Of a stretch of DNA of 64,000 nucleotides, positions 3,680 to 48,598 are shown one piece after another. The notes under the pieces are model-generated. The model searched no databases, was not told the origin of the DNA, and saw nothing but the letters and a program-made list of their open reading frames with translations. The DNA comes from Escherichia coli (lineage in GTDB: Bacteria; Pseudomonadota; Gammaproteobacteria; Enterobacterales; Enterobacteriaceae). A program made the translations under genes and the position numbers. The stretch lies in the NCBI RefSeq assembly GCF_029227855.1, contig NZ_CP074356.1; one strand, written 5' to 3'. Numbering within the stretch: position 1 is the first letter of the stretch; every line of letters begins with the position of its first letter.

Positions 3680-4996
3680 TCAGTTAGTTGCCGTTTGAGA
3701 ACGGAAACGGGCAAAGATAAAGATGACTGCGAAGCAGAGTGCCGGGATCAGTTCGGCAGTGGGGATGTTGCCCGCTGCGTCACTGACAAACCCCATGACC
3801 GGAGTGACAATACCGCCGCCAATAATGGTCATAACGATGAAGGACGAACCGTATTTGGTGTCCTGGCCGAGATTTTTAATGCCCAGCGAGAAGATTGTTG
3901 GGTACTGAATCGACATAAAGGCACTGCATAAAGTCAGGGCTATTAAGCCCACATGACCGCCAGCGAAGGCTGAGATCAGGCACAGTGCCATAGCGATTAA
4001 TGCGTAGGCGGCCAGGACTTTGTGTGGTGCGAAGCGACTGATGAGCCAGGTACCGGTGAAACGACCAATAAAGAAGCACACCATGGTTCCGGTTAAATAG
4101 TTAGCGGCAAAGCCTGCAGTCATACCTGGAATTTCTTCTACAGCGTAGCGAATCAAATAGCTCCAGCAGGCCGTTTGTGCGCCGACATAGCAGAATTGCG
4201 CTAATACCGCCCAGCGCCAGTGACGAATACGCGCCAGACGAGAAAGCGATGCGGAGAACGATCCTTGTTTGGCGTCACTGTGATTATCACTCTGCAATGC
4301 CGGGAATTTCGTCAGCATGATCAGCAGGGCGACCAGTAACACGATAGCCACGATGATCATATAAGGTGTCTGTACCGATAATACCAGGCTGTGTTTATAC
4401 GCACTCAATTGCTCTGGAGACATTTTATCGAGAACGTCTTGCGATTGATGTGGCACGTTAGACAAAATAAGACTTTGCCCAAAGACAACCGCGATAATTG
4501 CGCCAAATGAGTTAAATGTTTGCGCAAGATTTAAGCGGAAGTGACCACTGCTTTCCGGCCCTAATACCGTAACAAAAGGGTTTGCGGCAGTTTCCAGACA
4601 ACCTAATCCGGCTGCAATAATAAATAGGCCAACTAAAAATAAGGTGTAGTTCATTATTTCTGCAGCGGGCCAGAATAATGCAGCGCCCAAGGCATATAAA
4701 AATAATCCGGTAATAATCCCTGCTTTATAACTGAGTTTTTTCATCAATATCCCGGCAGGGATTGGGATAATGAAATAACCAAAGTAAAAGGCCGATTGGA
4801 TCAGGCCAGCCTGGAAATTTGTCAGCGTAAAAGCCTGCTGGAATTGAGGTAATAAAATGTCGTTAAGGTTATTGGCTACCGCCCAAAGAAAAAACAGTGA
4901 GCACAGCAGCGCGAATGGAATAATGTAACTTCTGCTTTGCCCTGCATCTTTATCTACCGCACGGTAACTCTGCGTTTGTATTGATGTGTTTCCCAT
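3680..4996 (-). CDS. fucP: L-fucose:H+ symporter (MFS), 438 aa
   Basis: ORF track 438 aa, polytopic hydrophobic protein; first gene of fucPIK. Confidence 0.93.
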   Translation of the reverse strand: MGNTSIQTQSYRAVDKDAGQSRSYIIPFALLCSLFFLWAVANNLNDILLPQFQQAFTLTNFQAGLIQSAFYFGYFIIPIPAGILMKKLSYKAGIITGLFLYALGAALFWPAAEIMNYTLFLVGLFIIAAGLGCLETAANPFVTVLGPESSGHFRLNLAQTFNSFGAIIAVVFGQSLILSNVPHQSQDVLDKMSPEQLSAYKHSLVLSVQTPYMIIVAIVLLVALLIMLTKFPALQSDNHSDAKQGSFSASLSRLARIRHWRWAVLAQFCYVGAQTACWSYLIRYAVEEIPGMTAGFAANYLTGTMVCFFIGRFTGTWLISRFAPHKVLAAYALIAMALCLISAFAGGHVGLIALTLCSAFMSIQYPTIFSLGIKNLGQDTKYGSSFIVMTIIGGGIVTPVMGFVSDAAGNIPTAELIPALCFAVIFIFARFRSQTATN

Positions 4997-5542
4997 AGCA
5001 TCCTCTTAGGTTCAGAAGCTTAAGCACGTAATCGGTTATGTTTTCAAAAGTGCAAAACCAGCGAGTTCGGGCTTCATATCAGTGAATATTTGCCTGTCAG
5101 AAATGAACTCATGGATTCATTTTCAAATAAAAAACGCTCTGTAATATGACGGCGGTCACACTTATTAGCTGGGAGGTGACTTTATGTGACTACCATCACT
5201 TTAATAATCGAAATTTCATGCCCGTTTCAGAAAATAAATCATAAAAAACACAAACCCGATGACCGTATTAATTGTTTGTGCCGAAAACGGGCATTTCTGG
5301 CGAGAGGGAATGGGAAAATGACCGTTTTGATAAATATTTTTAAGAGCGGTCATTTTTAATGGGGTTATAAAAAGAGAAGTTGCAGTTATTTACTGTGATT
5401 AGTTGAACCAGGTCACAAAATATAAGCTTGTGAATTTCTTTCTTGTTAATCAGGAAGAAGATGGTGGGTAATTAAACGGCTAATTCAATAGTGTGAAAGG
5501 AACAACATTATTGCCCTGTTTTGAATCAGAGAGAGGTAGCTA
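4997..5542. promoter_or_regulatory. Divergent fucPIKU / fucAO control region; CRP-like site TGTGACTACCATCACT near 5185-5200 and three ATGACCG-type motifs
   Basis: 546 bp AT-rich intergenic between divergently oriented fucP and fucA; near-consensus CRP half-sites read directly. Confidence 0.55.
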
Positions 5543-6190
5543 ATGGAACGAAATAAACTTGCTCGTCAGATTATTGACACTTGCCTGGAAATGACCCGCC
5601 TGGGACTGAACCAGGGGACAGCGGGTAACGTCAGTGTACGTTATCAGGATGGGATGCTGATTACGCCTACAGGTATTCCATATGAAAAACTGACAGAGTC
5701 GCATATTGTCTTTATTGATGGCAACGGTAAACATGAGGAAGGAAAGCTCCCCTCAAGCGAATGGCGTTTCCATATGGCGGCCTATCAAAGCAGACCGGAT
5801 GCCAACGCGGTTGTTCACAATCATGCCGTTCATTGCACAGCAGTTTCCATTCTTAACCGACCGATCCCCGCTATTCACTACATGATTGCGGCGGCTGGCG
5901 GTAATTCTATTCCTTGCGCGCCTTATGCGACCTTTGGAACACGCGAACTTTCTGAACATGTTGCGCTGGCTCTCAAAAATCGTAAGGCAACTTTGTTACA
6001 ACATCATGGGCTTATCGCTTGTGAGGTGAATCTGGAAAAAGCGTTATGGCTGGCGCATGAAGTTGAAGTGCTGGCGCAACTTTACCTGACGACCCTGGCG
6101 ATTACGGACCCGGTGCCAGTGCTGAGCGATGAAGAGATTGCCGTAGTGCTGGAGAAATTCAAAACCTATGGGTTACGGATTGAAGAGTAA
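5543..6190 (+). CDS. fucA: L-fuculose-1-phosphate aldolase, 215 aa
   Basis: ORF track 215 aa MERNKLARQIIDTCLEMTRLGL...; class II aldolase. Confidence 0.95.
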   Translation: MERNKLARQIIDTCLEMTRLGLNQGTAGNVSVRYQDGMLITPTGIPYEKLTESHIVFIDGNGKHEEGKLPSSEWRFHMAAYQSRPDANAVVHNHAVHCTAVSILNRPIPAIHYMIAAAGGNSIPCAPYATFGTRELSEHVALALKNRKATLLQHHGLIACEVNLEKALWLAHEVEVLAQLYLTTLAITDPVPVLSDEEIAVVLEKFKTYGLRIEE

Positions 6191-39280: not shown

Positions 39281-40735
39281 ATGTCTTTATCTCGCGCAGC
39301 GATTGTCGACCAGCTAAAGGAAATTGTTGGTGCAGATCGCGTAATTACCGATGAAACAGTATTAAAGAAAAACAGTATTGACCGTTTTCGCAAATTTCCG
39401 GATATTCATGGCATTTATACTTTGCCGATTCCGGCAGCGGTCGTAAAACTCGGTTCCACAGAACAAGTATCCCGTGTGCTGAATTTTATGAATGCGCACA
39501 AAATTAACGGTGTGCCGCGTACCGGTGCTTCCGCTACCGAAGGTGGGCTGGAAACCGTTGTGGAAAACTCGGTGGTGCTCGACGGCTCCGCCATGAATCA
39601 AATCATTAATATTGATATTGAGAATATGCAGGCCACGGCGCAATGTGGCGTTCCGCTGGAGGTGCTGGAAAACGCGTTGCGTGAAAAAGGTTACACCACG
39701 GGGCATTCTCCGCAGTCAAAGCCGCTGGCGCAGATGGGCGGCCTGGTAGCAACCCGCAGTATCGGGCAGTTCTCCACACTCTACGGCGCAATCGAAGATA
39801 TGGTCGTTGGTCTGGAAGCAGTACTGGCAGATGGCACCGTAACACGCATTAAAAACGTACCACGCCGCGCGGCAGGCCCGGACATTCGTCACATCATCAT
39901 CGGCAACGAAGGTGCATTGTGCTATATCACTGAAGTAACTGTGAAAATCTTTAAGTTCACCCCGGAAAACAACCTCTTCTACGGCTATATCCTGGAAGAC
40001 ATGAAAACCGGCTTCAACATCCTGCGTGAAATCATGGTGGAAGGGTATCGTCCGTCGATCGCTCGTTTGTATGACGCTGAAGATGGCACCCAACACTTCA
40101 CCTATTTTGCCGATGGTAAATGTGTGCTGATCTTTATGGCTGAAGGTAACCCTCGCATTGCGAAGGCGACAGGCGAAGGGATTGCGGAAATCGTGGCACG
40201 TTACCCGCAATGCCAGCGAGTGGACAGCAAGCTGATCGAAACCTGGTTTAATCACCTGAACTGGGGGCCGGATAAAGTGGCCGCTGAACGTGTGCAGATC
40301 CTCAAAACCGGCAACATGGGCTTTACCACCGAAGTGTCCGGCTGCTGGAGCTGCATCCACGAAATCTACGAAAGCGTTATTAACCGTATTCGTACCGAGT
40401 TCCCGCACGCCGACGACATCACCATGCTGGGCGGTCACTCCTCTCACAGCTACCAGAACGGTACCAACATGTACTTCGTTTACGACTACAACGTTGTTGA
40501 CTGTAAGCCGGAAGAGGAAATCGACAAGTACCACAATCCGCTCAACAAAATCATCTGCGAAGAAACCATTCGCCTCGGCGGTTCGATGGTGCACCACCAC
40601 GGTATTGGTAAACATCGCGTTCACTGGAGCAAACTGGAACACGGCAGCGCGTGGACGTTGCTGGAAGGTTTGAAAAAACAGTTCGATCCTAACGGCATTA
40701 TGAATACGGGTACTATCTATCCGATTGAAAAATAA
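39281..40735 (+). CDS. ygcU: FAD-linked oxidase (alkyl-DHAP synthase / D-lactate dehydrogenase-like), 484 aa
   Basis: ORF track 484 aa; FAD-binding PCMH-type domain features. Confidence 0.85.
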   Translation: MSLSRAAIVDQLKEIVGADRVITDETVLKKNSIDRFRKFPDIHGIYTLPIPAAVVKLGSTEQVSRVLNFMNAHKINGVPRTGASATEGGLETVVENSVVLDGSAMNQIINIDIENMQATAQCGVPLEVLENALREKGYTTGHSPQSKPLAQMGGLVATRSIGQFSTLYGAIEDMVVGLEAVLADGTVTRIKNVPRRAAGPDIRHIIIGNEGALCYITEVTVKIFKFTPENNLFYGYILEDMKTGFNILREIMVEGYRPSIARLYDAEDGTQHFTYFADGKCVLIFMAEGNPRIAKATGEGIAEIVARYPQCQRVDSKLIETWFNHLNWGPDKVAAERVQILKTGNMGFTTEVSGCWSCIHEIYESVINRIRTEFPHADDITMLGGHSSHSYQNGTNMYFVYDYNVVDCKPEEEIDKYHNPLNKIICEETIRLGGSMVHHHGIGKHRVHWSKLEHGSAWTLLEGLKKQFDPNGIMNTGTIYPIEK

Positions 40736-46483: not shown

Positions 46484-46798
46484 AATTTCTCTACAGGACG
46501 ATAAAACCGCCGTAGAGTACCGGAAAGCCTGTTTTTTCGCATTACTAAAAACGGGTTTGTTGCGCAAAATGACCGATTTAACTTAATTGTGGCCGATATT
46601 TATCTATTTTTCATAGAGTTAATAAATCTATTTTGTTGTTAAAGACTATTGCTAAAACAGGTTAGTCGATTTGGTTATTAGTTATCGCTATCCCGTCTTT
46701 AATCCATCCCCTTCGCGCCGTTAACCTTACCTTCTCTTCTGTTTTATGGGCGCTGACAGGGCCGATAAACAGCTTTGCTTACTGGAACATAACGACGC

Positions 46799-48598
46799 AT
46801 GACGACACAGGTCCCACCTTCCGCTTTGCTTCCGCTGAACCCGGAGCAACTGGCACGCCTCCAGGCGGCCACAACCGATTTAACGCCCACCCAGCTTGCC
46901 TGGGTTTCTGGCTATTTCTGGGGAGTGCTTAACCAGCAACCTGCTGCGCTTGCAGCGACGCCAGCTCCTGGTGCAGAAATGCCGGGTATAACGATTATCT
47001 CTGCTTCGCAAACCGGCAATGCGCGTCGGGTCGCCGAAGCATTACGCGATGATTTATTAGCGGCAAAACTGAACGTTAAGCTGGTGAACGCGGGCGACTA
47101 TAAATTCAAACAAATCGCCAGTGAAAAACTGCTTATCGTGGTGACGTCAACACAAGGGGAAGGGGAGCCGCCGGAAGAAGCCGTCGCGCTGCATAAGTTC
47201 CTGTTCTCCAAAAAAGCGCCGAAGCTGGAAAACACCTCGTTTGCTGTGTTTAGCCTCGGCGATAGCTCTTATGAATTTTTCTGCCAGTCCGGGAAAGATT
47301 TCGACAGCAAGCTGGCGGAACTTGGCGGTGAACGCCTGCTCGATCGTGTCGATGCCGATGTTGAATACCAGGCTGCCGCCAGCGAATGGCGCGCCCGCGT
47401 GGTTGATGTACTGAAATCGCGCGCGCCTGTCGCAGCACCTTCACAATCCGTCGCCACTGGTGCGGTGAATGAAATCCACACCAGCCCATACAGCAAAGAA
47501 GCGCCGCTGGTGGCGAGTCTCTCTGTTAACCAGAGAATTACTGGACGTAACTCTGAAAAAGACGTTCGCCATATCGAAATTGACTTAGGCGACTCTGGCC
47601 TGCGTTATCAGCCGGGCGATGCGCTGGGTGTCTGGTATCAGAACGATCCGGCACTGGTTAAAGAACTTGTCGAACTGCTGTGGCTGAAAGGCGATGAACC
47701 CGTCACCGTTGATGGCAAAACGCTGACTCTGAGTGAAGCGCTACAGTGGCATTTTGAATTGACGGTTAACACCGCCAACATCGTTGAGAACTACGCCACG
47801 CTTACCCGCAGTGAAACGCTGCTACCACTGGTGGGCGATAAAGCGAAATTGCAGCATTACGCCGCGACCACCCCAATTGTCGACATGGTGCGTTTCTCTC
47901 CGGCGCAACTGGATGCCGAAGCGCTGATTAATCTGCTGCGTCCGCTGACCCCGCGCCTGTATTCCATCGCCTCCTCGCAGGCGGAAGTCGAGAACGAAGT
48001 ACATGTCACCGTTGGTGTGGTGCGTTACGACGTGGAAGGCCGAGCCCGTGCCGGTGGTGCCTCCAGCTTCCTCGCGGATCGCGTGGAAGAAGAGGGTGAA
48101 GTCCGCGTCTTTATCGAACATAACGATAACTTCCGCCTGCCAGCCAATCCGGAAACGCCGGTGATTATGATTGGCCCAGGCACCGGCATCGCGCCGTTCC
48201 GCGCCTTTATGCAGCAACGCGCCGCCGACGAAGCGCCGGGGAAAAACTGGCTGTTCTTTGGCAACCCGCACTTTACGGAAGATTTCCTCTACCAGGTGGA
48301 ATGGCAGCGCTACGTCAAAGAGGGCGTGCTGACGCGTATCGATCTTGCCTGGTCGCGCGATCAAAAAGAAAAAATTTACGTACAAGACAAACTGCGCGAA
48401 CAGGGCGCAGAGCTGTGGCGCTGGATCAATGACGGTGCCCACATTTATGTCTGCGGCGACGCTAATCGCATGGCGAAAGACGTTGAGCAGGCACTTCTGG
48501 AAGTGATTGCCGAATTTGGTGGCATGGACACCGAAGCGGCGGATGAATTTTTAAGTGAGCTGCGCGTAGAGCGCCGTTATCAGCGAGATGTCTACTAA
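46799..48598 (+). CDS. cysJ: Sulfite reductase (NADPH) flavoprotein alpha subunit, 599 aa
   Basis: ORF track 599 aa [24 protein letters not shown]... Confidence 0.96.

Follow-up and report, generated by a model that had tools for sequence, protein, structure and literature searches.

The ATGACCG-type motifs lying between fucP and fucA in the 64,000-nucleotide stretch of Escherichia coli DNA analysed here (hereafter the window) very probably form part of an array of FucR boxes placed centrally in the divergent control region shared by fucPIKUR and fucAO. The FucR box of the window is asymmetric, ~15 bp long, with the consensus wwAAACGG(T/G)CATtt, and is present in five good copies (A to E) and one degenerate copy (A'). 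Both the FucR operator motif and two of these boxes are already published, and the original prediction, which had proposed the motifs as operator half-sites for FucR, is a correct rediscovery. That the motifs are FucR operators is borne out by their agreement with the published motif and by their conservation, whereas the term 'half-site' is only partly apt, since box E remains ~70% active without its partner, box D.

FucR boxes in the fucP-fucA intergenic region

The 546-bp gap between fucP and fucA (4997-5542) was matched in more than 5,000 complete E. coli genomes. The gene layout of the best-matching record gave the following flanking genes:

3680-4996, minus strand: fucP
5543-6190, plus strand: fucA

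The minus strand carries fucPIK and the plus strand fucAO; fucI and fucK are found farther to the left, fucO farther to the right, and fucU and fucR just beyond the window edge. FucR of the matching genome has the domains HTH_DeoR (E = 7e-23) and DeoRC (E = 2e-45); a sequence search of this protein against solved structures gave nothing useful at E < 1e-5, with a marginal DeoR-family PDB match at E = 0.2, and thus no structure similar enough in sequence for modelling how FucR contacts DNA. Judged by the gene layout and the FucR domains, the motifs had been rightly placed in a fuc divergent control region served by a DeoR-family FucR, and they are located in the fucPIKUR/fucAO control region of a genome that encodes this regulator. 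Alignment of the window with the K-12 intergenic region was gap-free (546 columns, 14 differences), so that K-12 coordinates transfer directly to the window; positions 5354-5217 of the window are equivalent to K-12 coordinates of about 2,933,876-2,934,013.

The published FucR motif, G(A)C(T)C(G)A(C)A(G)A(TC)A(T)CGGT(G)CAT(A)T(CG), was derived in vitro by DAP-seq with purified FucR (Baumgart 2021, as quoted in the text of Zhang et al. 2024, PMC11011485); as a 15-mer, the consensus is given there as RYSMRHW-CGG-K-CA-WB. The same text describes two K-12 sites, OFucR2 (ccgaaaaCGGtCAtt), whose mutation reduces fucose-induced PfucAO activity by ~30%, and OFucR3 (ttaagagCGGtCAtt), whose mutation reduces it more than 50-fold; in both cases the mutant evidence is lost reporter induction, not lost binding. 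Zhou et al. 2025 (PMC11894529) added 'putative' OR0 and OR1 sites to these two (there OR2 and OR3), the coordinates of which are absent from the text and supplements of that paper, as far as these go. We assigned the following boxes in the window:

5217-5231, minus strand: box A, tctgaaaCGGgCAtg (ATGCCCGTTT on the plus strand at 5218-5227, AAACGGGCAT on the minus strand), from sequence and motif match
5240-5254, plus strand: box A', cataaaaAACACAaa, reading AAAAAACACAAAC in the window; degenerate partner of A at +23, with a putative function
5258-5272, minus strand: box B, attaataCGGtCAtc, which includes the first ATGACCGT (5259-5266); inverted pair with C
5281-5295, plus strand: box C (OFucR2/OR2), ccgaaaaCGGgCAtt, which includes the related motif AAAACGGGCAT (5284-5294)
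5317-5331, minus strand: box D, atcaaaaCGGtCAtt, which includes the second ATGACCGT (5318-5325); paired with E
5340-5354, plus strand: box E (OFucR3/OR3), ttaagagCGGtCAtt, which includes GCGGTCAT (5346-5353); principal FucR site for fucAO

All four motifs originally singled out are present at the positions given in brackets, and the two plus-strand copies of ATGACCGT represent the FucR box in the opposite orientation. The original list was nevertheless incomplete, as it omitted a fifth box with plus-strand ATGCCCGTTT at 5218-5227. This box, A, is the FucR-type box closest to the CRP site of the fucPIK promoter (OCrp1), and probably corresponds to either OR0 or OR1, the putative sites of Zhou et al. 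2025.

The core CGGKCA is intact in all five boxes (A-E). Compared with the published consensus, box D matches at 15/15 positions, B and C at 14/15 each, and A and E at 12/15 each by our own count. A position weight matrix (PWM), built from sites of non-Escherichia genera only, scored D at 20.9 bits (the top match of the window), C at 19.6, A at 14.5 and B at 14.3 bits; the five boxes took ranks 1 (D), 2 (C), 5 (E), 6 (A) and 7 (B) among ~128,000 window positions. Box D is also one of only two perfect consensus matches in the 64 kb, the other lying inside an ORF. Boxes C and E are at the same locus and have the same motif as K-12 OFucR2 and OFucR3, and are identical to them save for a T-to-G change at the K position of C. 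While the literature, as represented by these two papers, lists four FucR sites, the window contains five good boxes and one degenerate one. Box D lies between OR2 and OR3 and is therefore not among the four published sites, if their names follow map order; in the sources considered here it appears to be unnamed.

At the K position of box C (5291), the window has G (CGGgCAtt) where K-12 has T, and the consensus permits both. Escherichia sp. MOD1, E. albertii and other E. coli lineages likewise have CGGGCAT at this site; K-12 and strain F5656C1 have CGGTCAT. Within Escherichia, G may be the ancestral base of the site targeted by mutation in the published K-12 study.

Two lone FucR-motif matches were seen elsewhere in the window, both on the minus strand and both lacking a partner box. 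The match at 46565-46584 (19.3 PWM bits) is in a divergent intergenic region, adjoining a 599-aa ORF (46799-48598) that we take to be cysJ; the one at 39377-39391 is a perfect 15/15 match inside a 484-aa ORF. Both are probably due to chance.

CRP sites and promoter elements around the array

The remaining regulatory elements of the intergenic region were mapped as follows (a strand is given for the promoter elements):

5052-5062: SrsR box, GCAAAACCAGC
5143-5164: OCrp0, CRP site taaTaTGAcggcggTCACActt, with a CGGTCAC that belongs to the CRP half-site
5182-5203: OCrp1, CRP site of the fucPIK promoter, TGTGActaccaTCACT, flanking the array on the fucP side (literature and conservation)
5402-5423: OCrp2, essential CRP site of PfucAO, ttagtTGAaccaggTCACAaaa, flanking the array on the fucA side (text of PMC11011485 and conservation)
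5470-5475, plus strand: PfucAO -10 element AATTAA, mapped from the text of PMC11011485
5480 (C), plus strand: fucAO transcription start, -63 from the fucA ATG, by 5'RACE (text of PMC11011485)
5491-5512: OCrp3, mapped from the text of PMC11011485

The -35 element given in the text of Zhang et al. 2024 (PMC11011485) as 'TTGtgA, -96 to -91' reads TAATCA in the window (5447-5452). The nearby hexamers TTGTGA and TTGTTA are found at -115 to -110 (5428-5433) and at -99 to -94 (5444-5449), respectively. On this point the published promoter annotation is slightly inconsistent, with no consequence for the FucR boxes.

A further difference from K-12 concerns the IS5 target CTAG, which reads CTGG at 5169-5172 of the window (TTAGCTGGGAGG versus TTAGCTAGAAGG in K-12). 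According to the text of PMC11894529, IS5 sits at this CTAG (-374 to -371 of fucA) in all K-12 propanediol-positive mutants. The exact 65-bp haplotype of the window at 5141-5205 is carried by 404 of 5,014 E. coli genomes. Judging by the altered target, the window strain may be unable to activate fucAO by the CTAG/IS5 route.

Clustering of the motif in the control region

Counting both strands, the 64 kb contain 15 copies of ATGACCG, compared with 8.1 +/- 2.6 in shuffled sequences, and three of these 15 copies are packed into 95 bp of the fuc control region. For the enrichment test we took CGGKCA, the core of the FucR motif, which had been published independently. Five copies of this core are found at positions 5210-5360 (151 bp) versus 0.255 expected from the remaining window (Poisson P ~7e-6), and for the extended form CGGKCAT, also present five times, the expected number is 0.057 (P ~5e-9). 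When the intergenic region was simulated 20,000 times with a first-order Markov model, no run reached five copies of CGGKCA, and none of the 151-bp stretches of the window outside the fucP-fucA intergenic region had more than three. A sixth CGGKCA match (CGGTCAC, 5153-5158) is part of OCrp0, not a FucR box.

Conservation across Enterobacterales

A scan for FucA with one genome per species returned 80 loci, in 46 of which an adjacent divergent fucP (at least 76% identical) was present. In almost every one of these 46 fucP-fucA loci, CGGKCA boxes were placed and oriented equivalently. A motif search in orthologous fuc regulatory regions had been proposed with the original prediction, loss of the motifs there being named as evidence against it; the boxes proved to be kept from Escherichia to Yersinia, Photorhabdus and Edwardsiella, and such loss was not encountered. 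Each of the features compared, namely the box, its orientation and its position, was found again in orthologous regions. Across ~45 Enterobacterales genera and species, the five boxes stand out as islands of conservation, and an alignment of 44 sequences shows conserved boxes, CRP sites and fucP -10 region, with largely diverged sequence in between. Box density amounts to 4.84 per 550 bp upstream of fucA versus 0.59 in the adjacent coding sequence. When 7-mers other than AT-only ones were counted de novo, those repeated at least three times in orthologous intergenic regions were exclusively fragments of AAACGGKCAT.

Individual boxes vary in characteristic ways. Within Escherichia, every box is invariant except for the K position of C, while the C-D linker is riddled with substitutions. 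The core of box E is CGGACA in many genera, and boxes A, B and D are conserved. The position of A' reads AAAACCCACAG in most genera, being degenerate in Enterobacteriaceae, and is occupied by a true TTCGGTCAT box in Photorhabdus; the AAAAAACAC of A' is moderately conserved in the alignment. All three minus-strand boxes have plus-strand partners in ~40 of 47 fucP-fucA regions, from Escherichia to Yersinia, and some Photorhabdus keep the B|C pair alone.

Three Edwardsiella loci carry the full five-box array ~350-225 bp upstream of fucA, with spacings of 42/23/33/23 and CGGACA in box E. The adjacent permease of these loci is ~40% identical to E. coli FucP and lies ~1 kb away. On the Edwardsiella evidence, the array appears to travel with fucA and not with E. 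coli-type fucP.

Inverted pairs and two-module geometry

For every minus-strand box there is a partner on the plus strand, its CGG located 23 bp farther right; the resulting inverted pairs are A|A', B|C and D|E. Pairs of the form TGMCCG-N20-24-CGGKCA were confined to B|C and D|E in the entire 64 kb, and an independent repeat search recovered D|E as a 42-bp palindrome with arms 5315-5335 and 5336-5356 (81% complementary). The distances between consecutive elements were compared across species:

OCrp1 to A: 31.5 bp in 29 of 29 species
A to B: 41-42 bp in 29 of 30 species
B to C: 23 bp in 33 of 34 species
C to D: 30-58 bp; the value of 17 obtained in four cases for Photorhabdus belongs to a different pair of boxes
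D to E: 23-24 bp in 34 of 34 species
E to OCrp2: 61.5-62.5 bp in 29 of 33 species; in the remaining four, all Photorhabdus, the script picked different boxes

From these spacings, the region is apparently built of two rigid modules, OCrp0-OCrp1-A-A'-B-C and D-E-OCrp2-promoter, with a free linker between them. As spacing is fixed across each whole module, it does not in itself single out the pairs as units.

The joint between the modules was delimited as follows:

5296-5316: C-D linker, an unconstrained joint, hypervariable in sequence in E. coli and variable in length between genera

Approximately half of the linker positions differ among nine Escherichia sequences, and of 5,019 E. coli genomes, 4,498 have a 151-bp array that is, because of this hypervariability, only 90-95% identical to that of the window. 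An IS1 element was observed within the linker (~5307) of E. coli strain E3 (NZ_CM130010.1), where boxes A-C with the fucP promoter end up on one side of it, and boxes D-E with the fucAO promoter on the other.

The inverted-pair and two-module geometry, together with its conservation in Enterobacterales, is not described in the text of PMC11011485 or PMC11894529, as far as these sources extend, and our literature search for a comparative-genomics FucR regulog in Enterobacterales gave nothing relevant.

Relation of the boxes to published reporter data

FucR binding to DNA is stated in the literature, so far as covered here, to require inducer. In the text of PMC11011485, fucAO is described as needing both FucR with inducer and CRP, with a critical OFucR3 and an auxiliary OFucR2; the main contribution of FucR, in the authors' proposal, is to assist CRP in occupying OCrp2. 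The truncation series reported there, assayed with a reporter at the lac locus under saturating fucose, can be read directly against the window map. PAO.V5 (-270, window 5273) removes A and B and leaves fucAO unaffected. PAO.V6 (-206 to +30, window 5337) further removes C and D at a cost of only ~30%, the same loss as that of the OFucR2 point mutant, so that ~70% of induced activity stays. PAO.V7 (-166) removes E as well and loses nearly all activity. It follows from PAO.V5 and PAO.V6 that A, B and D are dispensable for fucAO.

These data create a tension around box D, which is the best-scoring and among the most conserved boxes of the array, yet is dispensable for fucAO in the published assay. 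As expected of palindromic operators, the pairs show inverted orientation and a fixed offset of 23-24 bp, but E deprived of D still supports ~70% of fucAO activity, and this independence of E weakens a model based on pairs. We had considered D|E as an obligatory palindromic operator of fucAO and downgraded this candidate, since the deletion of D in PAO.V6 costs nothing beyond the loss attributable to OFucR2.

Discussion

FucR, a DeoR-family activator answering to fuculose-1-phosphate, very probably binds the array described here. In K-12 the literature shows it to act, together with its inducer, through E, and to a lesser degree through C, in activating PfucAO jointly with CRP at OCrp2. Boxes A, B and probably C may have the corresponding role for PfucPIKUR through OCrp1 and OCrp0. 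The paired layout suggests cooperative binding of a FucR oligomer. Box D is geometrically part of the fucAO module, and it could serve cooperative binding when FucR or inducer is limiting, act on the fucP side, or mediate communication between the modules.

It is extremely improbable that the repeats lack a regulatory role and merely reflect chance, or the base composition of an AT-rich intergenic region. Such an account could appeal to the fact that short 7-8-mers are individually common, as with the 15 ATGACCG copies of the window, and that the pattern had been chosen by eye post hoc. However, the clustering is far above expectation even with a motif published a priori, the boxes stand out as G+C-rich against the 37% G+C of the region, their position, orientation and spacing are kept across Enterobacterales, and two of them have mutant phenotypes; with the enrichment statistics, conservation and the de novo 7-mer count all against it, we regard this explanation as ruled out. 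Hardly more credible is a reading in which the boxes are not FucR sites but promoter hexamers or targets of another factor (CRP or SrsR, for example). The region does contain four CRP sites and one SrsR site, one CGGTCAC does belong to OCrp0, and OFucR3 overlaps the -35 of an old computer-predicted promoter. Yet the CRP sites (5143-5164, 5182-5203, 5402-5423 and 5491-5512) and the SrsR box (5052-5062) map elsewhere, the boxes are devoid of TGTGA/TCACA, the promoter predicted at OFucR3 proved inactive according to the literature consulted, and the FucR motif, as quoted in the text of PMC11011485, was obtained with purified FucR. Our search for a sigma-70 consensus match in the region found none, and an identity as CRP, SrsR or promoter-hexamer sites was rejected on the grounds that those sites map elsewhere and no sigma-70-like site was seen.

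On a further and tentative reading, somewhat less likely than not, the region would comprise three inverted pairs in place of four sites, making up two CRP-FucR modules, one per promoter, and D would be a genuine unnamed FucR site whose role is other than fucAO activation as assayed to date, for instance in cooperative or low-inducer binding, in fucPIKUR control or in communication between the modules. A different organisation, which we consider rather unlikely, would have the boxes act as independent, orientation-specific single sites, with C and E serving fucAO, and A, B and D serving fucPIKUR, and with FucR binding every box separately in the orientation that points to the promoter concerned. 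It draws on E alone giving ~70% of fucAO induction after the deletion of C and D (PAO.V6), on the unchanged fucAO activity after the deletion of A and B (PAO.V5), on the published motif being one asymmetric 15-mer, and on the extended mutual similarity of the three minus-strand boxes (direct repeats D1 and D2). Against such independence, the 23-bp pair offset is kept in 33/34 and 34/34 species, and Photorhabdus has a full A|A' pair; D is rigidly tied to E and OCrp2 and not to the fucP-side module, with the C-D distance varying; and D|E forms a 42-bp, 81% complementary palindrome.

Among known systems, DeoR (deo) and GlpR (glp operons) exert multi-operator control, as repressors that are released by inducer. 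The fuc region resembles them in the HTH_DeoR and DeoRC phosphosugar-sensing domains of its regulator, in operators repeated over more than 100 bp, in having CRP as co-regulator and, presumably, in the oligomeric state of the regulator. It differs in that FucR is an activator, and in that its box is asymmetric with widely spaced inverted partners instead of being a compact palindrome. The araBAD/araC and rhaSR/rhaBAD systems are CRP-dependent divergent sugar regulons in which a specific activator is positioned upstream of CRP. As in fuc, a pathway-specific activator and CRP act jointly there, the activator sites are upstream of or next to a CRP site, and the geometry is conserved; unlike fuc, their activators belong to the AraC/XylS family and not to the DeoR family, and fuc has one central array for two divergent promoters.

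For the biology of the window strain, the missing CTAG could affect its evolving growth on propanediol by the IS5 route. For fuc regulation more generally, our results confirm what is known at textbook level and change nothing fundamental. Their addition is a modest one, consisting of a map of five to six boxes, an apparently unnamed box D, a conserved two-module geometry and a natural linker joint, and it would be of use to specialists in fuc regulation and to those building fucose biosensors from the fuc promoter region.
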